A DNA stretch of 50,845 nucleotides from Candidatus Aminicenantes bacterium (GTDB lineage Bacteria > Acidobacteriota > Aminicenantia > Aminicenantales > Saccharicenantaceae): positions 1 to 50,845 of the forward strand of contig JADGNU010000003.1 in assembly GCA_017883305.1 (NCBI GenBank). Reading direction: 5' to 3'. The notes below the pieces were generated by a model. That model worked only from the letters and a program-made list of their open reading frames with translations, did no database searches and was not told the DNA's origin. Shown here piece after piece: positions 29,235-47,832 of this stretch; position 1 is the stretch's first letter; each line of letters opens with the position of its first letter. Both the position numbers and the translations under genes were made by a program.

Positions 29235-29263
29235 TTGATTTGGGGGGTTTTTTACCCTAGAGT
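29235..29263 (+). promoter_or_regulatory. Putative sigma70 promoter for the GH63 gene
   Basis: TTGATT-N17-TAGAGT. Confidence 0.5.
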
Positions 29264-29297
29264 AGACGCGAGGAGGCCGCTTGCGGGATTCCCCGGC

Positions 29298-34340: not shown

Positions 34341-35075
34341 ATGGACAGCATGCGGACAAAGCTCGCGTCACTCGAATACCCCGGACGGCTCATCGTCATC
34401 GGCGCGGCGCCCGACGGCGGCCGGGCCGTGATCATCTACGCCATCACCGGACGCTCTCCCTCGAGCCAGGCCCGGCGCCTTGTCCTGCGCGACGGCGGGA
34501 TCTGGGTCGAGCCGACCGACGAAGCCACCCTGAAGCAAGGTCACGTCGACCTCCTCGTTTATCCGGCCGTCCTGTTCACCCGGGCGGGCCTTGCCGTCTC
34601 TAACGGCAAGCAGACGACCGACGTTCGCGACCGGCTCACGCCCGGCGCCGGCCCCGTCCCGGCGCTCGCTGCGGCCCTGGCCTCCTGGGACTTCGAGCCC
34701 GATGCGCCGATCTTCACGCCCCGGATCAGCGGTTGTCTCGCCGGCGGCGCCGCCGGCCTGAGCGTCGTCAGGCGCGGGCCCTCGGGCGAAACCCTGCGCA
34801 ACTATTTCGAGGCCGTGTTGCGCCCGGGAGAGGGGCGGCTCGTGTCCACCTATGAGGGACCGAACGCCGATCCTTTGCCCGTCTTCCGCGGCGAGCCTCG
34901 ATTCGTCGACCTGGCCGGTTCCACGGCCGCCGAGACAGCGGAGGACGCCTATCGGAGCCTCGGCCCCGAGCCGTCGGCCAAAGACTTCCGGGTTGCCGTG
35001 GCCTGCGTCTTCGTCTCACCCGGGGAGCCGGACAAGGTCGACGTCCGCATCATCAACAGGCACGAAAGGACATGA
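34341..35075 (+). CDS. Stand-alone IMP cyclohydrolase-like protein (PurO-type Ntn fold)
   Basis: Motifs YPGRLIVIG, YAITGRS, VSNGKQT, FEPDAPIFTPRISG resemble the archaeal/Firmicute PurO-type family. Directly upstream of an AICAR transformylase. Confidence 0.78.
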   Translation: MDSMRTKLASLEYPGRLIVIGAAPDGGRAVIIYAITGRSPSSQARRLVLRDGGIWVEPTDEATLKQGHVDLLVYPAVLFTRAGLAVSNGKQTTDVRDRLTPGAGPVPALAAALASWDFEPDAPIFTPRISGCLAGGAAGLSVVRRGPSGETLRNYFEAVLRPGEGRLVSTYEGPNADPLPVFRGEPRFVDLAGSTAAETAEDAYRSLGPEPSAKDFRVAVACVFVSPGEPDKVDVRIINRHERT

Positions 35076-35079
35076 CGCC

Positions 35080-36159
35080 ATGAGCAAACCCGAGCGCACC
35101 GCGCGCAGTCAGTATCTGACCAAGGTCGGGGAGGATTTCCCGGACACCCTCCAAGTCGGCGAGGACACCTTCGTCAAGAAGTTCCCCATGCGCTACGGCG
35201 AGAACCCCGGCTACCCGGCGGCCTTTTATCAGGAGGACGGCGCGTCGGGACCGAACATGGGCCACCTCGAGATCCTTCAAGAAGGGACCAAGGGCCTGAG
35301 CTACATCAACGTCGGGGACATGGACCTCGGCCAGCGCCTGGCCCGCAAGCTCACCCAGGTCTTCCCGGGCCGCCACGTCTGCGTCATCATCAAGCACGAG
35401 ATGCCGAGCGGCGTCGCCCTCGGCGACGACCCGGTCGGGACGTTCGAAAAAGCCTGGAAGTGCGACTCGCTCTCCAACTTCGGCGGCGTCGACGTCTTCA
35501 GCTACCGCGTCACGGCGCCCCTGGCCCGCCTGCTCGTCGAAAGCCCGCGCAACGTGGAGGTCGTCTACGCTCCCGATTTCGAGCCCGAGGCCCTCCAGGT
35601 GCTGGCCGCGCGCAAGGTCCTTCGGGTGGTCAAGATGGGCGCCCCGCTCGACACGCCGTCCGTCGACAACGGGCTCGAGGTCAAGCGGGTGGCCGGGGGG
35701 CTGCTCCTGCAGAAGCGCTTCGACTCCAAGATCGTCTCGCCGGATTCGGTGGATGTCGTTTCGGTGCGCAAGCCAGCGCCGGAGGAGGTCCGGGCGGCCC
35801 TGTTCACCTGGACGGTGGCCTGTTTCACCCGGTCCAACGCCGTCATCATCGGCACCGCCGACAAGACCCACGGCATCGGCTCCGGCCAGCGGAGCCGGAT
35901 CGATTCCGCCGAGGATGCCATCCGGCTCTCGCGCCGCGGCTATGGCCCGGAAGGCTGCGTCATGGCCTCCGACGCGTTCATGCCGTTCCCCGACGTCGTC
36001 GAGCTCGCCGGGAAGCACGGCATCACGGCCATCATCTATCCCCTTGGCTCGGTCAAGGACCAGGAGGTCATCGACAAGGCCAACGAGCTCGGGCTGGCCA
36101 TGATCATCACCCGGAAGCCGGGCGAGCTCGATTCGGAGCGCTGCTTCCTCCACCGCTGA
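35080..36159 (+). CDS. purH: AICAR transformylase domain only (PurH lacking the N-terminal IMP cyclohydrolase domain)
   Basis: Motifs MRYGENP, LSYIN, IIKH (catalytic Lys-His), FGG, SNAV, GIGSGQRSRIDS, ASDAF.PF.D, GSVKD, C-terminal RCFLH. 359 aa. Confidence 0.85.
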   Translation: MSKPERTARSQYLTKVGEDFPDTLQVGEDTFVKKFPMRYGENPGYPAAFYQEDGASGPNMGHLEILQEGTKGLSYINVGDMDLGQRLARKLTQVFPGRHVCVIIKHEMPSGVALGDDPVGTFEKAWKCDSLSNFGGVDVFSYRVTAPLARLLVESPRNVEVVYAPDFEPEALQVLAARKVLRVVKMGAPLDTPSVDNGLEVKRVAGGLLLQKRFDSKIVSPDSVDVVSVRKPAPEEVRAALFTWTVACFTRSNAVIIGTADKTHGIGSGQRSRIDSAEDAIRLSRRGYGPEGCVMASDAFMPFPDVVELAGKHGITAIIYPLGSVKDQEVIDKANELGLAMIITRKPGELDSERCFLHR

Positions 36160-36218
36160 GGAGAAGCGGCCCCGGATGCCGCCGCGGGTCCGGTTCAAGG
36201 GCCCCGATACGTGATGCC

Positions 36219-37616
36219 ATGAGAAAACCAATCGTTCGGAACCTATGCGTCCTGGCCCTCATTGTCCTCGCCGTCCGGACCGTCTTGTCCGGCAGCGGAA
36301 AGCCCGAAGACTATCGGGCGCTCGTCGACAAGGTCCGCGAGACCGGCCTGTCCGGTGAGCGGGCTTTCGCCCTTCTCGAAAGGATCACCTCGGTCGGTCC
36401 GCGGCTGACCGGCTCCCCCCAAGCCGCCGCCGCGGTCGATCTCACGCGGGACCTCATGGCGGAGCTTGGCCTGGCTCGCGTCCATACCGAACCTGTCGAG
36501 GTCGGACATTGGACGCGGGGGCAGGTCGCCGAGGCGTCCGTGGCGGCATCGCCTTCCCGCGCCGCCATCCCCCTCGCCGTCTGCGCCCTCGGCGGGAGTG
36601 TCGGCACGCCCGAGCGGGGAATAACGGCCCGGGTCGTCGAGGTCCGCTCCCTTGAAGAAGCGGCCTCGCTCGGAAAGTCGGCCGAGGGCAAGATCGTTTT
36701 CTTCAACAGGGCCATGGACAGGGGCCTGACGGATTCGTTCGCCGCCTACGGCGCGGCCGCTGACCAGCGCGTCAGCGGGGCTTCCGCCGCGGCTCGCGTC
36801 GGCGCGGCCGCCGTCCTCGTCCGGTCGCTCACGTTCCGCGACGACCGCAACCCTCATACAGGCATGCTGCGCTACGACCCTGACGCCCCCGCCATTCCCG
36901 CCGCGGCGATCGGCACCGCGGACGCCGATCGGCTGAACGCGCTGCTCAAGAAGGGCAAGGACGTCTCCGTATCGCTGCGGATGGACTGCCGCGACCGGGG
37001 AAAGGTCGTCTCGGCCAACGTCGTCGGCGAGATCACGGGCTCCGAGCTTCCCTCCGAGATCATCCTCCTCGGCGGCCACCTCGACAGCTGGGATCTCGGC
37101 GTCGGCGCCCACGACGACGCCGCGGGCTGCGCCGCGGCGCTGGAGGCAGTCGCGCTCCTCCACGATCTCGGCCTGCGGCCGCGCCGGACCATCCGGGCCG
37201 TGATGTTCATGGACGAGGAGTTCGGCGGCACGGGCGGCCGGGCCTACGCTGTGGCGCCGCAGAGGAAGGGCGAGCGACATCTGGTCGCCGCCGAATCCGA
37301 CCGGGGCGGCTTCGTCCCTGTCGGCTTGGCGATCGGAAGCGGCGACCGCAAGGCCATCGAGCGCGTCTTGCCGTACGCCGACCTCATCAGACCGTTCGGG
37401 ATCTGGTTCATCGTCCCGGGAGGGGGAGGCGTCGACGTCGCTCCCCTCATCGCCAACGGAGCGGTCCCGGCGGCCGTCCTGGTCAATGCGCAAACCTATT
37501 TCGACGTCCACCATTCCGCTCTCGACGTCGTGGCGAGGGTCGCGCCGCGGGAGCTCGAGCTCCAGGCCGTCGTCCTCGCCATCCTCGCCTATATCCTGGC
37601 CGAGGAAGGCGTTTGA
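36219..37616 (+). CDS. Secreted M28 peptidase with PA domain (carboxypeptidase Q-like)
   Basis: Signal peptide; GPRLTGS; GGHLDSWD; GAHDDAAG; DEEFG; ESDRG; HHSALD. Confidence 0.9.
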   Translation: MRKPIVRNLCVLALIVLAVRTVLSGSGKPEDYRALVDKVRETGLSGERAFALLERITSVGPRLTGSPQAAAAVDLTRDLMAELGLARVHTEPVEVGHWTRGQVAEASVAASPSRAAIPLAVCALGGSVGTPERGITARVVEVRSLEEAASLGKSAEGKIVFFNRAMDRGLTDSFAAYGAAADQRVSGASAAARVGAAAVLVRSLTFRDDRNPHTGMLRYDPDAPAIPAAAIGTADADRLNALLKKGKDVSVSLRMDCRDRGKVVSANVVGEITGSELPSEIILLGGHLDSWDLGVGAHDDAAGCAAALEAVALLHDLGLRPRRTIRAVMFMDEEFGGTGGRAYAVAPQRKGERHLVAAESDRGGFVPVGLAIGSGDRKAIERVLPYADLIRPFGIWFIVPGGGGVDVAPLIANGAVPAAVLVNAQTYFDVHHSALDVVARVAPRELELQAVVLAILAYILAEEGV

Positions 37617-37632: not shown

Positions 37633-39603
37633 ATGAACGATCTCGCGTTTCTCTTTGCCGTCCACAACCACCAGCCCGTCGGGAACTTCCCCGAAATCTT
37701 CAAGGCGGCGTTCAACGACTGCTACCGGCCTCTCCTCGAAGCGCTGGCCGGCCATCCGGGTTTCCGCTTCGCCCTTCACTTCTCCGGACCCCTCTGGGAG
37801 TACATGGAGAAGAAAGAGCGGGGCTGCTGGGACCTCGTCCGGGAGCTTTCCATCCGGGGCCAGGTCGAGCTCCTGGGCGGCGGATTCTACGAGCCCGTCC
37901 TGTCCATCATCCCGGAAGAGGACCGCCTGGGCCAGATCCGCATGATGAACGATTTTCTGGCTGAAAATTTCGGTCAGCGGCCGCGCGGGCTGTGGCTGAC
38001 GGAGCGGGTCTGGGAACCCGACCTGCCTCGAACCCTGGCGACGGCGGGGATCGAGTTCACGCTCCTCGACGAAGAGCATTTTCACTACGCCGGCGTCCGC
38101 GACCTTCACACGACCTACATCACCGAAAGCGAAGGCCGGAGCCTGCGCGTTTTCCCAATTGACAAGACCCTGCGCTACGACATTCCGTTCCATTGCCTCG
38201 AGGACGTCGAGTCCTATCTCGGGACGATCCGCGAGGCGGGCGGGACGGCCATTCTCGGCGACGACGGGGAGAAGTTCGGGGTCTGGCCCGGAACGCACAA
38301 GCTGGTTTACGAGGACGGCTGGCTCGAGAGGTTCCTGGCCTTCGTCGAAGATAGGAAGATCCGGATGATGTCCTTCGCGGAATATCTGGACGGTCATCCT
38401 CCGTCGGGCCGGGTGTATCTTCCTCCCGCTTCCTACGAAGAAATGATGGAGTGGGTCCTCGAACCGGACGAGCAGGCGGCCTTTCAAAGGCTCAAGGCGG
38501 GCGCCGGCCCGGAAGCCCGCCGCTTCCTCCGCGGCGGCTTCTTCCGCGACTTCTGCCGCAAGTACCCGGAGGCGAATCACCTCCATAAGCGGATGATCAT
38601 GGTCTCCCGCGAGGTGCGCGCCGCCGGCAATCCGGGCGACGGTCTCCGCCAGGTCTACAAAGGTCAGTGCAACGACCCCTATTGGCATGGCGTCTTCGGG
38701 GGCCTTTACCTGCCGCATCTCCGCGAGGCCGCCTACGGCCACCTCCTCGAGGCCGAGAAGACGACTCCGGATCCACCGGGCTGGAAGGTCCTCGATTACG
38801 ATTGCGACGGCCGGGACGAGCTCGCGTACCGGGACCCGACCTTCGGCCTCATAGCCAAGCCGGCGGCCGGCGGGACGCTCGTCGAGATCGACTACCGCCC
38901 CTGGTCGAGGAACCTCACCGACGTCCTCAGCCGGAGGCGGGAGGCCTATCACCGCGCCGCCGAATCCGCGGGGCAGGGATCGGAGAGCGGCAAGAGCATT
39001 CACGAGCTCGACAAGAAGCTGCCGCCGGACGCGGCCGAGCTCATGCGCTACGACCGTCATCCGCGTTTCTCGATGATCGACCATTTTTTCCGCGCCGGGA
39101 CGACGCCCGATGATTTCCGCCGGGTCGATTTCGGCGAGCAGGGCGACTTCGTCGACGGCGCGTTCTCGTTCGAGGCCTCCGGGGGAGAGCTCCGGTTGGA
39201 GCGGCGAGGGATGGTGCGGGCAGGGGAGGAGAGGGTCCCGCTGGTCATCCGCAAGACCGTCGCCACCTCCGACGGCTCTCTCCGCATCGATATCGAGGTC
39301 GAGAATCTCTCCGGCAGGCCGCTCGACGTGACCTACGGGTCCGAGTGGAACTTCCTCGCCTTTCCTCACGAGATCGAGCTCCTCGGCGCGGACGGCGCCG
39401 CGCTCTACGGCCGGGCCCTTCGTTTCGAACCGTCGGCGGCCGACGCGGTCTGGACGTTCGCCCTGCGCACGCTCTCCCAATCCGAAGAGGGATTTGATAT
39501 AATCCACCAAGGGTATTGTCTATGCCCGGTTTGGTCGTTAGGATGGGCGGGGAACGGGACGAAGCGCCTCTCCGTAGTCTTGAAGGAGCATAATGGCCGA
39601 TAA
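37633..39603 (+). CDS. GH57 4-alpha-glucanotransferase/alpha-amylase (DUF1925/DUF1926 type)
   Basis: Motifs HNHQPVGN, GGFYEP, GLWLTERVWEP (nucleophile Glu), GDDGEKFG (acid/base Asp), ASYEEMMEW, QCNDPYWHG. Confidence 0.92.
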   Translation: MNDLAFLFAVHNHQPVGNFPEIFKAAFNDCYRPLLEALAGHPGFRFALHFSGPLWEYMEKKERGCWDLVRELSIRGQVELLGGGFYEPVLSIIPEEDRLGQIRMMNDFLAENFGQRPRGLWLTERVWEPDLPRTLATAGIEFTLLDEEHFHYAGVRDLHTTYITESEGRSLRVFPIDKTLRYDIPFHCLEDVESYLGTIREAGGTAILGDDGEKFGVWPGTHKLVYEDGWLERFLAFVEDRKIRMMSFAEYLDGHPPSGRVYLPPASYEEMMEWVLEPDEQAAFQRLKAGAGPEARRFLRGGFFRDFCRKYPEANHLHKRMIMVSREVRAAGNPGDGLRQVYKGQCNDPYWHGVFGGLYLPHLREAAYGHLLEAEKTTPDPPGWKVLDYDCDGRDELAYRDPTFGLIAKPAAGGTLVEIDYRPWSRNLTDVLSRRREAYHRAAESAGQGSESGKSIHELDKKLPPDAAELMRYDRHPRFSMIDHFFRAGTTPDDFRRVDFGEQGDFVDGAFSFEASGGELRLERRGMVRAGEERVPLVIRKTVATSDGSLRIDIEVENLSGRPLDVTYGSEWNFLAFPHEIELLGADGAALYGRALRFEPSAADAVWTFALRTLSQSEEGFDIIHQGYCLCPVWSLGWAGNGTKRLSVVLKEHNGR

Positions 39604-41245
39604 GTACTTCTCCCTCGTGCTCCATAGCCACATCCCTTATGTCCTCGCCCACGGCAGCTGGCCGCACGGCATGGACTGGCTGTACGAGGCGGCGGCCGAA
39701 ACCTACCTGCCGATCCTGGACGTCTTCGAGCGCCTGGCCGGCGAGGGCATTCCGGCCCGGACCAATGTCAGCTTCACTCCCGTGCTGATGGAACAGCTCA
39801 AGGACGGAAGCTTCGTCCGCGGCTTCGACGAATATCTCAGGATGAAGATCGAGATCGCCGCTCGCGACCGGTCCTACTTCCGCAAGACCGGGAACGCGGC
39901 CCTCCTCCCCCTGACCGACTTCTGGGAGGCCTGGTACCGCAGGCTCCTCGAGGGCTTCTACGTCCGCTACAATGGCGACATCATCGACGGCTTCCGCTCC
40001 CTCCAGGACCGCGGCCTGATCGAGGTCCTGACGTCGGGCGCCACCCACGGCTACTTCCCGCTTCTCTCGCGCGACGAGAGCATCCGCCAACAGGTCGGCC
40101 AGGGGCGCCATACGTATTGCAAGCATTTCGGTCGCGAGCCGCGGGGCTTCTGGATCCCCGAGTGCGCCTACCGGCCGGGCTACAGCTGGAAGAACCCTTT
40201 CGGAGACGGCGAGCCGTACGCCCGGCTCGGGGTGGACGAGATCCTGGGGCAGGAGGGGCTCGGATGTTTCTTCGTCGACGCCCACCTCCTCAAGGGCGGC
40301 GAGGCCAAGGGCGTCTACATCGACCGTTTCCCGGGCCTGAACCTCCTTTGGGAGAAGTCCCGGGAGGTCTACAAGCCGGCCGACGACAGGCCGAACGACC
40401 CTTATTCGGCCTACTTCGCCCATCCCTCGGGTCTCCCGTTCTTCGCCCGCGACGACGTCTCCGGCTCTCAGGTCTGGAGCCGCTCCATGGGCTACCCCGG
40501 CGACGGCCAATACCTCGAATTCCATAAAAAGCACTTCCCAGGCGGCCTGCGCTACTGGCGGATCACGTCGAGCGACGCGGACCTGGGCCTCAAGGAGCCT
40601 TACGATCCGGCCCCGATCCGGGCCCGGCTCGAGGAGCATGCCGGGCACTTCGCTTCGGTCCTCGAATCGACACTCGCCGACCGCCCCTCGGGCGCGGTCG
40701 TGGCCCTCTATGACACGGAGCTCTTCGGCCATTGGTGGTTCGAAGGGCCGGAGTGGCTCTATCACGTCATCAAGAAGCTTTCGTCCGGACAGGTCCGTCC
40801 CGCGACGGCCGGCGACGTGCTCGACCGCCTGCCGCCCCTGAAGGCCATCTCCCTGCCCGAAGGCTCGTGGGGCAAAGGCGGCTTCCACTGGATCTGGCTC
40901 AACGACGACACGGCCTGGATCTGGAGGAAGATCTATCGTATCGAGGAGGCCGCCGCGGCGCTCACGCCTCGCCTGACCCGCCTCGATCGGCGCCTGCTCA
41001 AGCAGTTCTTCCGCGAGAAGTTCCTGCTCGAGAGCTCCGATTGGCCCTTCCTCATTTCGACCTGGTCGGCCCGGGACTATGCGGAGCACCGGGCCGCCGA
41101 GCACTTCGAGCGGGCCCTGACCCTGGCCGGCTGGCTCGACGAGGGCCGGGTCCTCAGCGCCGCGGAAGAGGCGCTCCTCCGCACCTTCGAATCCGAAGAT
41201 CATCTCTTTGAAGAGGTCGTGCTGCCCGATGGAACTGTCATCTGA
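39593..41245 (+). CDS. GH57 1,4-alpha-glucan branching enzyme (DUF1957 type)
   Basis: Motifs LHSHIPYV, ETYLP, ATHGYFP, GFWIPECAY, YDTELFGHWWFEG, SWGKGG, SSDWPF. Confidence 0.92.
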   Translation: MADKYFSLVLHSHIPYVLAHGSWPHGMDWLYEAAAETYLPILDVFERLAGEGIPARTNVSFTPVLMEQLKDGSFVRGFDEYLRMKIEIAARDRSYFRKTGNAALLPLTDFWEAWYRRLLEGFYVRYNGDIIDGFRSLQDRGLIEVLTSGATHGYFPLLSRDESIRQQVGQGRHTYCKHFGREPRGFWIPECAYRPGYSWKNPFGDGEPYARLGVDEILGQEGLGCFFVDAHLLKGGEAKGVYIDRFPGLNLLWEKSREVYKPADDRPNDPYSAYFAHPSGLPFFARDDVSGSQVWSRSMGYPGDGQYLEFHKKHFPGGLRYWRITSSDADLGLKEPYDPAPIRARLEEHAGHFASVLESTLADRPSGAVVALYDTELFGHWWFEGPEWLYHVIKKLSSGQVRPATAGDVLDRLPPLKAISLPEGSWGKGGFHWIWLNDDTAWIWRKIYRIEEAAAALTPRLTRLDRRLLKQFFREKFLLESSDWPFLISTWSARDYAEHRAAEHFERALTLAGWLDEGRVLSAAEEALLRTFESEDHLFEEVVLPDGTVI

Positions 41246-42407
41246 GAAGACCCTGACCATGGTCCTCTGCGGGGGCAAAGGGGAGAGGCTCTACCCCCTG
41301 ACCCGTGACCGGGCCAAGCCGTCCGTGCCCTTTCTCGGCGCCTACCGGATCATCGACTTCAGCCTGTCCAACGCCCTCAACTCCGGCCTGCGCCGGATCG
41401 CCCTGCTGACCCAGTATAAATCCCTGTCCCTCGAGCGCCACATCCTCAACGGCTGGAACATCTTCCACGCCGAGAGCGGCGACTTCATCATCTCCCTGCC
41501 CGCGCAGGGCCGGGTCGGCGACCACTGGTACGAGGGCACGGCCGACGCGGTGTTCCAGAACATCTACACCATCCAGCAGGAGAACCCGGAAGCCGTTCTC
41601 ATTCTTTCGGGCGACCACATCTACAACGCGGATTATCGCAAGCTCCTGCTCTTCTTCAATCAGACCGGGGCCGACGCCCTGATCATGACCCGTACGATCC
41701 CCATCGAGGAGGCCTCGCGCTTCGGCGTTATCGGCGTCGACGGCGAGAGCCGCATCATCGAGTTCATGGAGAAGCCGAAGAAGCCGTTCGCGACACCCTG
41801 GGATCCGACGAAGAGCCTGATCTCCATGGGGGTCTATCTGTTCAAGACGCCCGTCCTGATCAAGGCCCTGATGCGCGACGCCCGCAAGACGCACAGCACC
41901 CACGATTTCGGCCGGGACATCATCCCCTCGCTCATCGACAGCCAGCGGGTCTTCGCTTACACCTTCGACGATTACTGGGAGGACATCGGGACGATCGACG
42001 CCTACTGGGAGGCGAATATGGCCTTCGTGTCGCCGTCCCCGCCGCCCATCCTCAAGGACCCGGCCTGGCCGGTCCGCTCCTACAGGCCCCAATATCCGCC
42101 GACGTTCGTCTCCGGGTGCGACCTGCGCGCCTCGATCATCGGCCCCGGCTGCTCGTTCATCGACTGCCGCATCGTCAACTCGATCATCGCTCCGCGGGTC
42201 CGCGTCGAGCCTGGCGCCGAGGTCATCGACTCGATCCTGTTCGAGAACATCACGATCTGCCGCGGGGCCCGCCTGCGCAAGGTCATCATCGACAAATCCT
42301 CGGCGATCCCCGAAGGTTTCGAGATCGGCTTCGACGCCGACAAGGACGGCCGGGAATTCAAGATCAGCCGGACCGGGATCCGGGTCGTGCCCAAGGGTTG
42401 GACCTGA
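41229..42407 (+). CDS. glgC: Glucose-1-phosphate adenylyltransferase
   Basis: Motifs GGKGERLYPLTRDRAKPSVPF, YRIIDF, TQYKS, GTADAVFQN, SGDHIY, EKP, SMGVY, DFGRDIIP, YWEDIGT. Confidence 0.94.
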   Translation: MELSSEKTLTMVLCGGKGERLYPLTRDRAKPSVPFLGAYRIIDFSLSNALNSGLRRIALLTQYKSLSLERHILNGWNIFHAESGDFIISLPAQGRVGDHWYEGTADAVFQNIYTIQQENPEAVLILSGDHIYNADYRKLLLFFNQTGADALIMTRTIPIEEASRFGVIGVDGESRIIEFMEKPKKPFATPWDPTKSLISMGVYLFKTPVLIKALMRDARKTHSTHDFGRDIIPSLIDSQRVFAYTFDDYWEDIGTIDAYWEANMAFVSPSPPPILKDPAWPVRSYRPQYPPTFVSGCDLRASIIGPGCSFIDCRIVNSIIAPRVRVEPGAEVIDSILFENITICRGARLRKVIIDKSSAIPEGFEIGFDADKDGREFKISRTGIRVVPKGWT

Positions 42408-42408
42408 G

Positions 42409-43758
42409 ATGATCGAGAAGTACAGCATCCTGTCCCCGGATTTCGAGCGCGACGCGCCCCGCGAGCTGATGCTGCTGTCGATCATCTCGCAGAGCTTTTT
42501 CCAGCCGTTCTCCCTCGAAGATAACCTCCTCGTCATCCTGACGGCCCTGACCTCCGGGTCGGGCGTCGGCTTCAACCGGGCCATGCTCTTCCTCAAGCAG
42601 GGAGACCGGCTGCGGGGGGAAATGTGGCTCGGCCCCCGGTCGGCCGAGGAGGCCGGGCTGATCTGGGAGGTCCTTTCGACGCCCGGCATCGGCTATGTCG
42701 AGATCGTCGAGCACAACCGGGCCCTGGTCAGCAAGAACGAGGACACCTTGAGCGCGCGCCTCAAGGGGCTCGTGTACGCCGCCGACGACGAGAACGCCCT
42801 CATCCCGGCCTACGCCGCCTGCCGCAAGGAGATCCTCCTCGTCTCCCAGGCTTCGACCGAGCCGCTCGTCGACCGGCGCTTCCTCAACGTCATCGGGGTC
42901 GAGCAGTTTCTCTGCATCCCCCTGCTCGCCCGCGACGACGTCGTCGGCGAGATCATCCTCGACAACGCCATCACCCGGACCCCGATCACCCCGTCCGACA
43001 TCAAGCTGGCCGGGATCTGCGGCCTGATGGCCGGCAACTACATCTATTCGGCGACGCTCCACCGCAAGCTCCTCGACGTCGAGAAGATGGCCGCCATGGG
43101 CGAGATGGCCATGTTCGTCACCCATCAGCTGCGCAACCCCATCGTCGCCATCGGCGGCTTCACCGAGCAGCTCCTCAAGCCCGATGTCCCCGAGGAGAAG
43201 AAGCTCCGCAATCTGACCATCATTCGCGACGAGATCCGCCGCCTCGAGGGCATCATCTACCAGATGGGCCACTTCCTCAAGGTCAGCCTCAAGGAACCGA
43301 TCTACTTCGATCCCGGCCCGGGCATCGCCGCCGTGATCGACAGCCCGGAAGTCCAGACCAAAGCCCGGGGATACGACTTGAACGTCAAGCTGGAGCCCTG
43401 CCTGCCCGAGATCCTCTGCGACCCGACCTCCTTCGGCGAGGTCGTCCGCAACCTTCTCGACAACGCCTTCGACGCGACGCCCGCCGGCGGAACGATCTCC
43501 GTCCGCGGCTACCGCAAGAATCCGACGTCCTTCGTCCTCTCCATCCGCGACACCGGACGGGGCCTGACGAATCCGGACAAGGAGAACCTCTTCAGGCCAT
43601 TCTTCACGACCAAGGAGAAGGGGATGGGTCTGGGCCTGCCCTTCATCAAACGGGTCATGGACACCTGCGGCGGCAAGGTCGAGGTCCAGAGCCGGTTCGG
43701 GAAGGGGGCCCTCTTCAAACTTATTTTTATCTGCCGCGAAAGGGAGCTGACGCCATGA
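42409..43758 (+). CDS. Cytoplasmic GAF-domain sensor histidine kinase
   Basis: N-terminal GAF-like region (GFNRAMLFL, FLCIPLL..VGEIILDN); H-box THQLRNP; N-box NLLDNA; G1 DTGRG; F-box FRPFFTTK; G2 GMGLGL. No clear TM helices. Confidence 0.9.
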   Translation: MIEKYSILSPDFERDAPRELMLLSIISQSFFQPFSLEDNLLVILTALTSGSGVGFNRAMLFLKQGDRLRGEMWLGPRSAEEAGLIWEVLSTPGIGYVEIVEHNRALVSKNEDTLSARLKGLVYAADDENALIPAYAACRKEILLVSQASTEPLVDRRFLNVIGVEQFLCIPLLARDDVVGEIILDNAITRTPITPSDIKLAGICGLMAGNYIYSATLHRKLLDVEKMAAMGEMAMFVTHQLRNPIVAIGGFTEQLLKPDVPEEKKLRNLTIIRDEIRRLEGIIYQMGHFLKVSLKEPIYFDPGPGIAAVIDSPEVQTKARGYDLNVKLEPCLPEILCDPTSFGEVVRNLLDNAFDATPAGGTISVRGYRKNPTSFVLSIRDTGRGLTNPDKENLFRPFFTTKEKGMGLGLPFIKRVMDTCGGKVEVQSRFGKGALFKLIFICRERELTP

Positions 43759-44111
43759 AAAAGAAGATCCTGATCGTCGAGGACGAGAAGACCCTCTGCC
43801 TCCTCTACGAAGAGGAGCTGAGCAACGAGGGCTACGACATCACCGCGGTGATGGATGCCGAGGCCGCGCTGGCCAAGCTGGGCGAGCAGAGCTTCGACCT
43901 CATCATCACCGACATCCGCATGCCGGGCAAGAACGGGATCGAGCTCATCACCCAGATCATGGGCCTGCGCAAGGATATCCCGATCATCATCAACTCGGCC
44001 TACCAGAGCTACAAGGAGGACTTCATGACCTGGGCGGCCGACGCCTATGTCGTCAAGTCCTCCTCGCTCGACGACCTCAAGTCCAAGATCAAGCAGCTGT
44101 TGGGGGACTGA
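43755..44111 (+). CDS. Single-domain response regulator (receiver only)
   Basis: ILIVEDE, DLIITDIRMPGKNG (phospho-Asp), IINSAY, YVVK. 118 aa, no output domain. ATGA overlap with the kinase gene. Confidence 0.92.
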   Translation: MKKKILIVEDEKTLCLLYEEELSNEGYDITAVMDAEAALAKLGEQSFDLIITDIRMPGKNGIELITQIMGLRKDIPIIINSAYQSYKEDFMTWAADAYVVKSSSLDDLKSKIKQLLGD

Positions 44112-45136
44112 TGTCAGAACTGAGAAAGGACCTCATCAGCGGGCGCTGGGTCATCATCGCCACGGAACGGAGCAAGCGGCCTGACGACTTCCGGCCCCAC
44201 GGCGCGGTCGCGCCGGCGCCTGAAGCCGCGGGGTTCTGCCCGTTCTGCGAAGGCAACGAAGGGAAGACCCCGCCGGAAGTCTTTGCCCTGCGGGCCGCCG
44301 GCACGGCCCCGGACTCGCCGGGCTGGACGGTCCGGGTCGTCCCGAACAAGTTCCCGGCCCTCAACCCGGGGCCCCCGCCGCCGCGGGCCACGCGCGGGGT
44401 CTTCCAGTCCATGGAAGGGCGGGGTATCCACGAGGTCGTCATCGAGAACCCCGACCATGCCTTCGAGCTGGCCGACCTGCCCGTCACCCATGTCCGCGAC
44501 GTGCTCGGAGTTTTCCAGAAAAGGATCCTGGCCATCGAGAGGGACTTCCATTACCAGTACGTCCAGGTCTTCAAGAACAAGGGCAAGGAGGCCGGTGCCT
44601 CGTTGAGCCATCCGCACTCCCAGATCGTGGCGACGCCCATCATCCCCAAGCGGGTCAAGGAAGAGATGTACGGCGCGGACCGGTTGTTCCGGACCTTCAA
44701 GGAATGCGCCTTCTGTCGCATCCTGCGGGAGGAGGAGGCGGCGGGGTCGCGCCTGATCGCCCGAAACGCGCAATTCACCGCTTTCGCGCCCTACGCGTCG
44801 CGGTTCCCCTTCGAAATGACGATCTACCCGAAGCGCCACTCGGCCTTCTTCACCGAAGTCCGGGAGGACGAGCTGCTGACGCTGGCCGAGATCCTGAAGC
44901 ACGTCCTGACCCGGCTGAAGGAAACGGTCGGCGACCCGCCGTTCAACCTGGTCCTCCACCAGGCCCCGAACCCGTCATCGTCGCTCAAGAAATGGCCGGA
45001 CATCGAGCTCCGGTCGCACTGGCACTTGGAGATCATTCCCATCCTGACCAAGGTCGCGGGTTTCGAGTGGGGGACGGGGTTCTACATCAACCCGGTCCCT
45101 CCGGAGACCGGGGCCCAATTTCTGCGTCAGTCTTGA
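44111..45136 (+). CDS. galT: GalT-family hexose-1-phosphate nucleotidyltransferase
   Basis: Motifs RSKRP, CPFCEGNE, VVPNKFPAL, HEVVIE, FKNKGKEAGASLSHPHSQ, CAFC, HWHLEI, AGFEWGTG. Confidence 0.88.
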   Translation: MSELRKDLISGRWVIIATERSKRPDDFRPHGAVAPAPEAAGFCPFCEGNEGKTPPEVFALRAAGTAPDSPGWTVRVVPNKFPALNPGPPPPRATRGVFQSMEGRGIHEVVIENPDHAFELADLPVTHVRDVLGVFQKRILAIERDFHYQYVQVFKNKGKEAGASLSHPHSQIVATPIIPKRVKEEMYGADRLFRTFKECAFCRILREEEAAGSRLIARNAQFTAFAPYASRFPFEMTIYPKRHSAFFTEVREDELLTLAEILKHVLTRLKETVGDPPFNLVLHQAPNPSSSLKKWPDIELRSHWHLEIIPILTKVAGFEWGTGFYINPVPPETGAQFLRQS

Positions 45137-45137
45137 T

Positions 45138-46583
45138 TCAGGACGCGGCCAGCTTCTTGTAGAGATCGAGGTAGGCGGACGCGGATCGCTCCCAGGAGAA
45201 GTCCGCGGCCATCGCGTTGCGGACAAGCTTCCGCCAATCGATGGGTTTCTTGAAGAGGGCCCCCGCGCGCCCCGCCGCTTCGACAAGCGGCTCGGGTTCG
45301 GCTTCGACGAACTTGAACCCGTTGCCGTTCCCGACCTGCGGATCGAACTCCTGGACGCTGTCGTCGAGACCGCCCGTGGCTCTGACGACAGGGATCGTGC
45401 CATACTTCATGGCGTACATCTGGGTCAGCCCGCAAGGCTCATAGCGCGAGGGGATGAGGAAGATATCGCTCCCGGCGTAGATCGTGTGGGCGATCCGCTC
45501 GTCGAAGGCGATCTTGAGGCCGATCCGGGTCGGGTTCTTCTCTTGGGCCTCCAGCAGGAAATCCTGGATCTTCTGGTCGCCTGTGCCGAGAATGACCAGC
45601 GTCAATCCGAGGCCGAGAAGATCTTGGAGGGCTTCGCAAACGATGTCGAGGCCCTTCTGCCCGGCCAGGCGGGTGACCATGCCCGCGACGGGAAGAGTCG
45701 TCGGCGCGGCCAGGCCGAAGAGGGCCGCGAGCTCCTTGCGGCAGGTTATTTTCCCCGTCAAGTCCTCGGGCACATAGTTGCGAGGAATGAGATGGTCGGT
45801 GGCGGGATTCCAATCGCGGTAATCGACGCCGTTGAGGATGCCGTAAAGGACCGCGGACCGGGAACGAAGGAGGCCGTCGAGGCCGCAGCCGAACGCCGGC
45901 GTCTGGATCTCGCGGCTGTAGCGAGGGCTGACCGTCGTCACGGCGGTCGCATAGAGGATGCCGGCCTTGAGGGCATTGACCTTGCCGTAGAACTCGAGCT
46001 CGTTCATGTTGAAGAGCGAGGCGGGGAGCCCGATGCGGTCGAGAAGTTCGTCGTCGAACAGGCCCTGGTAGGCCAGGTTGTGGATGGTGAAGAGCGTCCG
46101 CGTCCGCGCGAAAAAGGCATCCCCCGCATAGACATAGCGGAGATAGGCAAAGACCAGGGCCGACTGCCAGTCGTGGCCGTGAACGATGTCGGGCGAGTAG
46201 CGCATCGCCCTCATGGTCTCGATGGAGGCCCGGCTAAAGAAGGCGAAACGCTCGCCGTTGTCCGGATAATCCCCGGCCGCGGTCCCGTAAAGGCAGTCCC
46301 GGTCGAAATACTCCGGCCGGTCGATGAAATAGACTGTGACGCCGTCGGCCCGGTGGGAGAAGACGGCGTAGGCGAGCTTCTCGCCGCCCATCTCGAGCTC
46401 GGCCCGCTCGATGACCGGCGTGAGCGGGATCTTCTTTTTCCGCACCTCCCGGTAGAGAGGCATGAACGCCCGGACTTCGGCGCCGAGCCCGGCGAGGACC
46501 TTGGGCAGGGCCCCGGCCACGTCGGCCAGGCCGCCCGTCTTGGCATAGGGGATGACTTCGGAGGCAAGGAATGCGACTTTCAT
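45138..46583 (-). CDS. glgA: Glycogen synthase (ADP-glucose)
   Basis: Motifs AKTGGLADV, HGHDWQ, TIHNLAYQG, TVSPRY, GILNGVD, RLAGQKG, PSRYEPCGLTQM, TGGLDD. Confidence 0.96.
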   Translation of the reverse strand: MKVAFLASEVIPYAKTGGLADVAGALPKVLAGLGAEVRAFMPLYREVRKKKIPLTPVIERAELEMGGEKLAYAVFSHRADGVTVYFIDRPEYFDRDCLYGTAAGDYPDNGERFAFFSRASIETMRAMRYSPDIVHGHDWQSALVFAYLRYVYAGDAFFARTRTLFTIHNLAYQGLFDDELLDRIGLPASLFNMNELEFYGKVNALKAGILYATAVTTVSPRYSREIQTPAFGCGLDGLLRSRSAVLYGILNGVDYRDWNPATDHLIPRNYVPEDLTGKITCRKELAALFGLAAPTTLPVAGMVTRLAGQKGLDIVCEALQDLLGLGLTLVILGTGDQKIQDFLLEAQEKNPTRIGLKIAFDERIAHTIYAGSDIFLIPSRYEPCGLTQMYAMKYGTIPVVRATGGLDDSVQEFDPQVGNGNGFKFVEAEPEPLVEAAGRAGALFKKPIDWRKLVRNAMAADFSWERSASAYLDLYKKLAAS

Positions 46584-46649
46584 GGTCCGCCTATTCTAGC
46601 ATAAGTACGCATGGCGGTCATCCGGACGCCCTTTCTCCTCGCTCATCAT

Positions 46650-47127
46650 GCCGCGGCGATTCTTCACGCCCCTCTGAGTCAGGCCCTCTGGCAGATCTCG
46701 CTGCATGGACTTCTCGGCTCGGGGCGTGCCGCTCCGTCGGGTCGCGGGTTTGGCCCGGCGCGCCAAACCCGCTCGGATCCGGGCCTCGCTCTCCTCTGGA
46801 TCCGTGCCCGCTTCGGCCCTCCCACGCCCTCCTCCGGGCATCGCCCCTGCGCCACCTTCCTTAACGCTCGATCTGCCCATCAAGTCCGGAATGTCGAGCG
46901 ACTCCACTAGAGACAAGACGACCGCTGAAACTGGGGTCGAGGGGGTCATCTGAGCGAGCATAAGCGGTGATTTAGCCGGTCCGGAGTCGGATGAGGGCAG
47001 TTTCAGAGGAAACCGCCAAAACGTGTTTGAGCGAGGCGTAGCGCACGCCGAGCGAGTTGTTTTGGCGCCGAGTCCGACGAACGGACCGGCGTGAAGAATC
47101 ACCGCAGCGAACGAAGATGATCCCCGA
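46650..47127. other. Structured non-coding element (MITE-like repeat or ncRNA) made of two folded modules
   Basis: Multiple nested perfect stems, plus a 21-bp inverted repeat (19/21) at 46650-46670 and 47088-47108. No credible ORF. Confidence 0.6.
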
Positions 47128-47130
47128 GGG

Positions 47131-47832
47131 CTAATTGATGATGCGGAGCATGCGGCTCCAGCGGGCCTTGGGGACGAAGCTGACCAGCTTCTTGAGGCGG
47201 TCGCGGATCCCGGTCTTCTGCCAGGCATCCCGCTCGGCCTTGTAGGAGAAATAGATGACCCAGGGCCGGCCCTTGATGGACGCCAGCGGCACGAAACCCC
47301 AGTAGCGGCTATCCATGCTGTTGTCGCGGTTGTCGCCCATGACGAACAGGTTCCCGGGCGGCACGGTCACGGGGCCATAGTTGTCGCGGATGACGTCGTC
47401 GTAGTTGTAGAAATCGTTCTTGGAGTTGACGTGGCTGTCGATGTGGACCTTATAGGGCTCGTCCAGCGGCTTGTCGTCGACGTAGACCTGCTTGTCCTTG
47501 ACCTCGACCTTCTGTCCCTCGAGCGCGATGACGCGCTTGACGAAGTCCTTGGTCAGGTCCTTCGGGTACTTGAAGACGACGATATCGCCCCGCGCGATCG
47601 GCTTATGGGGCAGGATCGTGCCCTCGAGCGGCAGGAGGGGCCTGGTGTAGGCGAGCTTGTTGACGAGCAGAAAGTCGCCGACGAGGAGGGTCGGCTCCAT
47701 GGAGCCGGTCGGGATCTGAAAGGCCTGGACGACGAAGGTCATGACGAAAAAGACGAAAACCGCCGTCTCGGCGATCAGCTCGAAGTATTCCCTGAAGAGG
47801 CTCTTGTCTCTTTTCTTCTTGTCCTTGTCCAT
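47131..47832 (-). CDS. lepB: Signal peptidase I
   Basis: Single TM; IPTGSMEPTL (Ser), FVKRVI (Lys), MGDNRDNSMDSRYWG. Confidence 0.95.
   Translation of the reverse strand: MDKDKKKRDKSLFREYFELIAETAVFVFFVMTFVVQAFQIPTGSMEPTLLVGDFLLVNKLAYTRPLLPLEGTILPHKPIARGDIVVFKYPKDLTKDFVKRVIALEGQKVEVKDKQVYVDDKPLDEPYKVHIDSHVNSKNDFYNYDDVIRDNYGPVTVPPGNLFVMGDNRDNSMDSRYWGFVPLASIKGRPWVIYFSYKAERDAWQKTGIRDRLKKLVSFVPKARWSRMLRIIN

Follow-up and report, generated by a model that had tools for sequence, protein, structure and literature searches.

A soluble histidine kinase and a receiver-only regulator within a glycogen gene cluster of Aminicenantes as candidate controllers of ADP-glucose metabolism

In bacteria, the classical control of glucose-1-phosphate adenylyltransferase (GlgC) is exerted by small-molecule allostery, and glycogen synthesis is also subject to global transcription regulators. 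Some response regulators that consist of a single domain work through contact with other proteins, among them CheY (with FliM), CpdR (with ClpXP) and DivK; none of these is known to target a metabolic enzyme of glycogen synthesis, and a full-text literature search found no report of a single-domain regulator directed at such an enzyme. Likewise, a full-text search that covered papers outside subscription-only access found none describing two-component signaling genes within a glycogen operon. The two-component pair ThkA/TrrA of Thermotoga maritima (PDB entries 3A0R, 3A10 and 3A0U) has no known biological output, and a full-text search found no paper on its function. The names ThkA (TM1359) and TrrA (TM1360) are those used in a data citation in PMC4034769. 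Moreover, the Arabidopsis protein At5g18200 (PDB 1Z84, 1ZWJ and 2H39) is presented as an ADP-glucose phosphorylase in PMC6329318, which cites McCoy et al. 2006, and the same description is given in the preprint 10.64898/2026.09.13.751320.

The locus analyzed here belongs to an uncultured Aminicenantes bacterium and forms a seven-gene glycogen cluster at positions 37633–46583 of the window, that is, of the whole stretch of 50,845 nucleotides under analysis (Table 1). Pfam and NCBIfam assignments, together with the junction sequences, bear out the tight packing described in a previous sequence-only reading of this DNA: from the GH57 glucanotransferase gene through the HIT enzyme gene, neighboring genes overlap or stand 1 nt apart, and glgA converges on them, with one base separating its stop codon from that of the HIT enzyme gene. 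The ATG of the GH57 glucanotransferase gene is preceded by AGGAG, and a TTG at 41208 is another possible start of glgC. An ORF on the minus strand (46596–47228) matches no family, its translation is rich in Arg, Ser, Gly and Ala, and it is probably not a gene. Between positions 35000 and 48500, three promoter-like sites were counted versus 1.3 ± 1.3 in shuffled sequences, and 12 terminator-like sites versus 8.6 ± 3.1, neither count being informative. Short, near-identical contigs cover most of the cluster genes in two metatranscriptome runs, and a metatranscriptome contig (43566–43840) spans the kinase–receiver junction; DNA carry-over is possible in both cases and transcripts are not shown by these contigs, which hint at most at expression of the cluster.

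Table 1. Genes of the glycogen cluster and the peptidase gene that precedes it (positions in the window).
Feature	Positions	Strand	Basis and junction
M28/PA-domain peptidase	35460..37616	+	Pfam Peptidase_M28 + PA; ends 16 nt before the operon
GH57 AmyA/4-alpha-glucanotransferase type, 656 aa	37633..39603	+	Pfam Glyco_hydro_57, AmyA-A_glucT_m, AmyA-gluTrfs_C
GH57 glycogen branching enzyme, 550 aa	39593..41245	+	Pfam Glyco_hydro_57 + BE_C; 11-nt overlap with preceding gene
GlgC, glucose-1-phosphate adenylyltransferase, 392 aa	41229..42407	+	TIGR02091; 17-nt overlap from in-frame ATG
GAF-HisKA-HATPase kinase, 449 aa	42409..43758	+	Pfam; 1-nt gap after glgC
Receiver-only regulator, 118 aa	43755..44111	+	Pfam Response_reg only; ATGA overlap with kinase gene
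GalT-family HIT enzyme (nucleotidyltransferase), 341 aa	44111..45136	+	TGATG overlap with receiver gene
GlgA, ADP-glucose-type glycogen synthase, 481 aa	45138..46583	-	TIGR02095; convergent on the operon

As in the classical GlgC–GlgA pathway, both enzymes are present and pass their NCBIfam cut-offs, narrowly in the case of GlgC (428.6 bits versus 424.9) and with 568 bits versus 328.45 in that of GlgA. The branching enzyme resembles Thermus/Thermococcus-type GH57 branching enzymes in that both the GH57 catalytic domain and the C-terminal BE_C domain are found, and it is assigned at the family level only, since its scores against the NCBIfam Thermus-type and Thermococcales-type models (485.6 with a cut-off of 920 and 472.1 with a cut-off of 1000, respectively) do not reach the equivalog cut-offs. 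In contrast to the classical pathway, the operon includes signaling genes (kinase and receiver) and the gene of a HIT enzyme, and a GT35 phosphorylase was not found in the metagenome-assembled genome (89.8% complete), nor in three of the four relatives searched. The earlier statement that GH13 genes and glgP are missing holds for the window, where none of the ORFs scanned is a GH13 or GT35 gene, but at the level of the genome the pathway is not exclusively GH57-based, because contig C357 carries a GH13 GlgB-type gene (CBM48, alpha-amylase and C-domain, 641 aa), which is adjoined by a GH57-DUF3536 gene.

The gene previously taken for galT encodes an enzyme that shares with At5g18200 the class I GalT-type HIT fold and the HXHXQ motif, with H167, H169 and Q171 invariant in 55 sequences, and that is the only full-length homologue in the genome. 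The alignment with At5g18200 covers residues 3–340 of 341, and the scores decrease from 1Z84 (235 bits; E-value of 1.5e-68 for 1Z84/2H39) to the characterized archaeal GalT 6K5Z (174 bits, 3.5e-50), E. coli GalT (94 bits, 7.5e-26) and human GalT (87 bits). A true Leloir uridylyltransferase, which would feed galactose-derived glucose-1-phosphate into glycogen while the kinase sensed a metabolite of the galactose pathway, would be in line with the good match to 6K5Z, with a score above the cut-off of TIGR00209 galT_1 (111.3 bits versus 102.1) and with the gene content of the genome, which carries galK and no other GalT homologue. However, At5g18200, described as an ADP-glucose phosphorylase in the two sources mentioned above, is far closer to it than the E. 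coli and human enzymes are, and galK sits alone on a different contig (C86), whereas, in the loci examined, the genes of HIT homologues have glgA, glgC or GH57 genes as neighbors. Furthermore, among 398 published Acidobacteriota genomes, galK is absent from 64 of the 112 with a close HIT homologue and present in 99 that have no close homologue; the occurrence of the enzyme across the phylum is unrelated to galK, and the co-occurrence and clustering expected of a Leloir GalT are not observed. The Leloir reading is thus ranked low and seems unlikely, and the enzyme is, judging from these comparisons, more likely ADP-glucose-phosphorylase-like. Annotations as 'galT' in such operons are probably wrong, with consequences for the metabolic models drawn up for Acidobacteriota and for other groups without cultures. 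The plant enzyme has no known operon context, whereas the bacterial gene shares its cluster with those of GlgC, GlgA and the signaling pair.

The kinase comprises an N-terminal GAF domain (residues ~20–215) followed by HisKA and HATPase_c domains, and Pfam together with the alignment recovers the phospho-accepting His and the ATP-binding boxes of a HisKA-type histidine kinase. H239 (in a THQLRNP box), N348 and G405/G407/G409 vary little or not at all among 12 orthologues, with the N and G boxes conserved; the catalytic motifs are therefore kept, and the GAF sensor is itself strongly conserved. In agreement with the earlier reading, no transmembrane segment was found (the highest 19-residue Kyte–Doolittle mean is 1.25), and the kinase is soluble and cytoplasmic. 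The AlphaFold model of the GAF domain (pLDDT 78.8) resembles GAF folds and is about equally close to those of PDE10A, the cAMP-bound Lcd1 GAF, PtsP and NifA (TM ~0.55–0.6), and its matches in the ESM Atlas are generic GAF clusters only; since so many GAF domains match about equally, a ligand cannot be inferred from the model. The alignment with ThkA (3A0R_A), the third-best kinase match, is confined to the DHp and catalytic regions (residues 224–434). The sensor domain differs, being a GAF here and a PAS in the crystallized ThkA fragment, and distant relatives of the kinase have a PAS-PAS-GAF arrangement.

As in ThkA/TrrA, a soluble sensor kinase is accompanied by a receiver-only regulator of similar length (~116 residues in TrrA and 118 here), and TrrA is the nearest solved relative of the receiver (3A0R_B/3A10, E-value 3.5e-28; next best 1e-16), both having in the alignment the alpha4-beta5 signature AY..Y..D...WAAD.YVVKS. 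Only Response_reg was detected, which confirms that the regulator has no DNA-binding domain. As in CheY, CpdR and DivK, there is no output domain, and the positions typical of stand-alone CheY-like receivers are conserved, namely D10 and D53, S/T81, Y98, and K101 within YVVK. The phospho-acceptor pocket is intact; 58 sequences all agree at D10, D53, A82, W93 and Y98, and the alpha4-beta5 stretch is nearly invariant. In 35 of 43 complete loci, no other protein of the cluster is as well conserved as the receiver, and no paralogue with the same signature was found in the genome.

Full-length kinase orthologues occur in 35 of the 41 genomes of the order Aminicenantales. When the contigs of named genomes were scanned, the 80 closest loci listed were all from Aminicenantes and, counting those with room on the contig, GlgC stands directly upstream of the kinase in 74/76, the receiver next to the kinase in 72/73, the HIT enzyme after the receiver in 69/70, and GlgA downstream of the kinase, at a distance of up to 9 kb, in 55/56; the GH57 glucanotransferase is found upstream in 64/70 and the GH57 branching enzyme is present in 54/71. 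Of the 12 loci examined at greater distance within the order, all have the receiver after the kinase, and 11 have the HIT enzyme next, the contig ending at that point in the twelfth. Five kinase-less genomes of the order have no HIT enzyme either, none of them has a GlgC above the cut-off, and two retain GlgA; four of the five belong to one family, and this may be a single loss.

Outside the order, a diverged GAF kinase (25–32% identity) occurs in 26 genomes of other Acidobacteriota, and kinase and receiver lie beside GlgC, GlgA and/or the HIT enzyme in 12 of the 14 loci taken from this set, glycogen genes being absent from the retrieved flanks of the other two. One of these loci (L120) is a self-contained operon with unrelated genes on either side, in the order HIT enzyme, GlgA, PAS-PAS-GAF kinase, receiver and GlgC. 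The HIT enzyme is present in 33 of 35 kinase-positive and 119 of 366 kinase-negative genomes when the unpublished genome G192 is included (32/34 and 119/364 without it), counts that are not independent because the genomes are related; the kinase–receiver pair is an accessory, as the enzyme occurs without it in those 119 genomes. In metagenomes, sampled solely by the beta5 motif of the receiver and without taxonomy, 80 loci were listed as matches, and 77 of them contain the receiver. In 50 of the listed loci, the receiver is less than 60% identical to the one studied here (locus G+C of 31–69%), and 34 of these have room downstream; the next gene encodes GlgC in 15/34 and the HIT enzyme in 2/34. 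Among the matches listed, at least 18 loci have the receiver followed by GlgC, falling into 10 clusters at 70% receiver identity, with an estimated gap of at most 20 nt or an overlap in 14 of 18. In L168, the receiver and GlgC genes overlap by 4 nt with no kinase nearby, and in L207 the order is receiver, GlgC, GH57, GH57 branching enzyme and HIT enzyme, again with no kinase nearby.

The sequence-only reading had proposed looking for the pair beside glycogen genes elsewhere, and the association holds across the order, in other Acidobacteriota (in rearranged order) and on metagenome contigs. The pair is, therefore, very probably tied in function to glycogen and ADP-glucose metabolism. A chance insertion of the two-component genes into a glycogen operon, for which no support was found, is refuted by the arrangement shared among 35/41 genomes of the order, 12/14 distant acidobacterial loci and diverse metagenome contigs, and its probability is practically nil.

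How the pair might act is a separate matter; conserved adjacency also fits co-expression without contact. The pair could drive transcription or some other cellular output by way of a partner encoded elsewhere, whether a transcription factor, a sigma or anti-sigma protein, an enzyme of second-messenger turnover or an additional step in a phosphorelay, the glycogen operon being its regulon or sharing its expression conditions. Receiver-only regulators such as Spo0F, DivK and CpdR often feed phosphorelays or bind non-enzyme partners and provide a precedent; unlinked partners must exist in this receiver family, since the kinase is not adjacent in L168 and L207. Moreover, in 17 of the 34 distant metagenome loci with room, among the matches listed, the gene after the receiver encodes neither GlgC nor the HIT enzyme (IleRS four times, a phosphate acetyl/butyryl transferase twice, the rest mixed), and the conserved alpha4-beta5 face may thus be a trait of the subfamily, used for instance in kinase contact, rather than a GlgC-binding surface. 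Nevertheless, no DNA-binding gene is found in the operons examined (the window, L120, L168 and L207), and the abutment or overlap of receiver and GlgC genes across at least 10 sequence clusters exceeds what a shared regulon needs, so an output through an unlinked partner appears unlikely, though far from negligible.

In the reading preferred here, the GAF domain would bind a cytoplasmic metabolite reporting carbon or energy state, the kinase would phosphorylate the receiver, and the phosphorylated receiver would influence, through direct contact, one of the enzymes at the ADP-glucose node, deciding whether glucose-1-phosphate enters ADP-glucose and glycogen. Action by contact is suggested by the lack of an output domain and is a tentative possibility, somewhat short of an even chance; the proposal as a whole, built from domain content and gene order, falls just below that mark. 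Gene order favors GlgC as the candidate target, followed by the HIT enzyme, with least support for GlgA; GlgC would be the likeliest because, in many distant lineages, its gene directly adjoins or overlaps that of the receiver. The narrower idea that the phosphorylated receiver binds GlgC and turns ADP-glucose synthesis on or off, perhaps acting reciprocally on the HIT enzyme, is doubtful; in this version, another phosphodonor would set the switch where no kinase is adjacent. More speculatively, in genomes without a detected glycogen phosphorylase, the HIT enzyme and GlgA working in reverse could free glucose-1-phosphate from glycogen, in which case the switch would choose between storage and mobilization.

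Alternatively, the receiver could be a phosphate sink or a kinase-feedback element that has no target; glycogen would then be affected by the kinase itself or not at all. Branched two-component pathways offer known examples of sink receivers, and the closest solved pair, ThkA/TrrA, has no known output. However, a sink requires that the kinase serve another receiver as well, and these operons (the window and L120) encode no such protein; receiver–GlgC pairs persist with no kinase nearby, and conservation within the cluster is highest for the receiver, all of which makes a sink highly improbable.

The tie between the pair and ADP-glucose enzymes in many distant bacteria points to an undescribed control of sugar storage. 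A kinase–receiver pair kept beside glgC and an ADP-glucose-phosphorylase-like gene would bring signaling to the step that commits bacteria to glycogen synthesis and, if the receiver does bind GlgC, this would be a protein-level phospho-switch at that step, set by a metabolite-sensing GAF kinase and coming on top of the small-molecule allostery of the classical pathway. TrrA-type receivers, so far studied structurally and with no assigned output, would then gain a possible biological role. Finally, homologues of the M28/PA peptidase encoded just upstream of the operon flank the cluster in four other loci (L021, L022, L024 and L032) and also in the distant metagenome locus L207; the peptidase is a recurrent neighbor, probably outside the mechanism.

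The seven genes that the sequence-only reading had grouped as a GH57-based glycogen operon were all found in place with Pfam and NCBIfam profiles, and reading of the sequence showed how tightly they are packed: the GH57 enzyme and branching enzyme genes overlap by 11 nt, those of the branching enzyme and GlgC by 17 nt, GlgC and the kinase lie 1 nt apart, the kinase and receiver genes share ATGA, the receiver and GalT-family HIT enzyme genes share TGATG, and the stops of the HIT enzyme and GlgA genes converge one base apart. The kinase is intact and cytoplasmic, with a strongly conserved GAF sensor and, as had been claimed, no transmembrane segment (no hydrophobic segment; maximum 19-residue Kyte–Doolittle mean 1.25), and the receiver is intact with no output domain. 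RNA-library contigs lie over most operon genes and one junction, which is not proof of transcription. A promoter-like site for glgA matches at 9/12 positions, and an ORF of 210 aa between glgA and lepB is probably no gene (no family match; Arg/Ser/Gly/Ala-rich translation).

Features of the operon, its flanks and related loci (window coordinates unless a locus is named)
Feature	Location	Strand	Basis or remark
MGH1-like/GH63-type glycoside hydrolase	29235-31682	+	upstream of operon
IMP cyclohydrolase-like (PurO)	34341-35075	+	upstream of operon
M28 peptidase	35460-37616	+	ends 16 nt upstream of operon
GH57 enzyme, AmyA/4-alpha-glucanotransferase type	37633-39603		Pfam, NCBIfam
GH57 branching enzyme with BE_C domain	39593-41245		Pfam, NCBIfam
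GlgC	41229-42407		TIGR02091, 428.6 bits (cut-off 424.9)
Kinase, GAF-HisKA-HATPase	42409-43758		Pfam, NCBIfam
Receiver-domain-only protein, 118 aa	43755-44111		Pfam, NCBIfam
GalT-family HIT enzyme	44111-45136		Pfam, NCBIfam
GlgA	45138-46583	opposite	TIGR02095, 568 bits
Promoter-like site for glgA	46621-46593
Rejected ORF	46596-47228	-
GH13 GlgB-type branching enzyme	L113:7888-9813		same genome (G000), contig C357
GH57-DUF3536 protein	L113:9162-12251		same genome, contig C357
Second GlgC paralogue	L115:196-1434	-	same genome, 2.9-kb contig C177
Two ORFs and PGAM-like gene	L168:5822-7607		metagenome locus
M28 peptidase	L207:882-2384		distant metagenome locus

Kinase, receiver and HIT enzyme form an invariant core in Aminicenantales. 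Searches of 41 genomes recovered a full-length orthologue of the kinase (E 1e-94 or better) from 35, comprising 24/25 of the genus and 11/16 of other families; at each of 12 loci from more distant genomes of the order the gene after the kinase encodes the receiver, with the HIT enzyme next in 11, the twelfth contig stopping at that point. The 80 closest named loci, all Aminicenantes, contain the kinase at coverage of at least 60% in 77 and, where the contig is long enough to show the neighbour, the receiver comes next in 72/73, the HIT enzyme is present in 69/70, GlgC lies directly upstream of the kinase in 74/76, and GlgA is found in 55/56, the GH57 glucanotransferase in 64/70 and the GH57 branching enzyme in 54/71, these locus and genome tallies being non-independent counts from related genomes. 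In L023, L026 and L027 no GlgC gene separates branching enzyme from kinase; these genomes encode GlgC elsewhere. One TGA lies inside the kinase match in seven same-genus genomes (G004, G009, G011, G014, G018, G020 and G024), representing either the overlap of the kinase stop with the receiver start or a true interruption.

Moreover, the pair is conserved over long range with ADP-glucose enzymes. A GAF-domain profile matches 35 of 401 Acidobacteriota genomes, with nine strong matches, every one in Aminicenantales, 26 weaker ones (E 1e-15 to 1e-29) in other families, and none in the other listed orders of the class. Loci were fetched from 14 of the 26 genomes, the unpublished G192 not among them, and in 12 a diverged kinase (25–32% identity) and receiver (32–50%) lie beside GlgC, GlgA and/or the HIT enzyme; L122 and L126 have none of these three within the fetched flanks. 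The L120 operon, whose flanking genes encode an unrelated TIM-barrel protein and aldehyde dehydrogenase, runs HIT enzyme, GlgA, kinase (737 aa, PAS-PAS-GAF-HisKA-HATPase), receiver (127 aa) and GlgC, an order unlike that of the window, yet with the same five genes together. The association with glycogen genes, first noticed in a single contig, is therefore kept both within the order and at these 12 distant loci.

The receiver is the most conserved cluster protein in 35 of 43 loci having all seven genes, with a mean identity of 82% (residues 1–100 only compared) versus 66–76% for the others. Residues D10, D53, A82, W93, A95 and Y98 are invariant, and the segment running from late beta4 to the end of beta5 almost so, in 58 sequences; no paralogue in the genome carries this signature, the next best being 35% identical. 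By a wide margin, the closest solved relative is 3A0R chain B (also 3A10 and 3A0U; E 3.5e-28), which has the same signature. These entries appear in a data citation (PMC4034769) as ThkA (TM1359) and TrrA (TM1360) of Thermotoga maritima, and a literature search found no report on the function of that pair.

Metagenomes were sampled with the receiver beta5 motif back-translated to a degenerate pattern, no glycogen gene being used in selection; the pattern matched once, in the receiver gene and nowhere else, in 104 of 129 loci checked. At least 120 stretches matched and 80 loci were fetched, which carry no taxonomy, so that phyla beyond Acidobacteriota are not nameable from them. Among the matches listed, 77 of the 80 have a receiver homologue at the motif. 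In 27 it is at least 60% identical to that of the window, and in the 23 of these with sufficient sequence the next gene encodes the HIT enzyme 19 times and GlgC twice. In 50 it is below 60% (locus G+C 31–69%), and for the 34 with at least 1.2 kb downstream the next gene is GlgC in 15, the HIT enzyme in two and neither in 17, these last being IleRS in four (L150, L173, L193 and L197), phosphate acetyl/butyryl transferase in two (L131 and L152) and otherwise mixed. The product of phosphate acetyl/butyryl transferase is an acyl phosphate, able to phosphorylate receivers. The receivers of these six IleRS-next and transferase-next loci carry the same beta5 signature and, since it thus occurs also away from glycogen genes, the conserved receiver face may serve kinase contact.

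Clustering at 70% receiver identity sorts the 18 listed receiver-then-GlgC loci into 10 groups, one of them holding nine loci, and the estimated gap is at most 20 nt, or an overlap, in 14. By ORF coordinates, the two genes overlap by 4 nt in L168, which has receiver and GlgC only, and are 7 nt apart in L207, which has receiver, GlgC, GH57, GH57 branching enzyme, HIT enzyme and M28 peptidase; neither has a kinase nearby. By these neighbour counts, the tie between receiver and GlgC persists best across distant lineages. Downstream of the translationally coupled genes of L168 lie two ORFs without family match and a histidine-phosphatase-superfamily (PGAM-like) gene.

The label galT is probably wrong. 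The HIT enzyme passes the galT_1 cut-off and its HXHXQ residues are invariant, but its best solved match is Arabidopsis At5g18200 (1Z84/2H39; E 1.5e-68, 235 bits), ahead of archaeal GalT (6K5Z, 3.5e-50), E. coli GalT (7.5e-26) and human GALT (2e-23). At5g18200 is described as an ADP-glucose phosphorylase, not a GalT, in PMC6329318, and its function is given likewise in a preprint (10.64898/2026.09.13.751320), both citing McCoy et al. 2006. HIT enzyme homologues (E 1e-30 or better) occur in 152 and galK in 149 of the 401 Acidobacteriota genomes. With three unpublished genomes left out, close homologues (E 1e-80 or better) are found in 112 genomes, 64 of which lack galK, and galK occurs without one in 99; among 32 genomes that encode the HIT enzyme as well as the kinase, galK is missing from 19. 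Thus, the HIT enzyme is not tied to the Leloir pathway, and its gene adjoins glycogen genes in the loci examined.

The leading proposal is that the GAF domain would bind a metabolite, that the kinase would phosphorylate the receiver and that the receiver would act on an enzyme by contact; comparison of a GAF structure model indicated no ligand. As the target, gene order puts GlgC ahead of the HIT enzyme. Gene losses agree weakly with this ranking: five kinase-less genomes of the order, four of them from one family, also lack the HIT enzyme and GlgC above the cut-off, and two keep GlgA. If the HIT enzyme were an ADP-glucose phosphorylase, it would form with GlgC an ATP-consuming cycle, which would be a reason for reciprocal control. 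No paper on a two-component pair in glycogen operons was found in a full-text search, whose coverage excludes subscription-only journals.

The pathway was read as GH57-based, which holds for the operon but not for the whole genome, a MAG 89.8% complete. A GH13 GlgB-type gene adjoins a GH57-DUF3536 gene on contig C357, the pair being a second alpha-glucan locus, and the organism is therefore not restricted to GH57 branching. A GT35 phosphorylase was not found in this MAG or in three of four searched relatives (three of the four being single-contig assemblies). The genome also holds one lone galK and a second paralogue of GlgC, which shares 35% identity with that of the operon. Upstream of the operon, the M28 peptidase combines a PA domain with an unexplained 400-aa N-terminal part; such a peptidase recurs at the cluster edge in the relatives L021, L022, L024 and L032, and in L207 is placed after the HIT enzyme.
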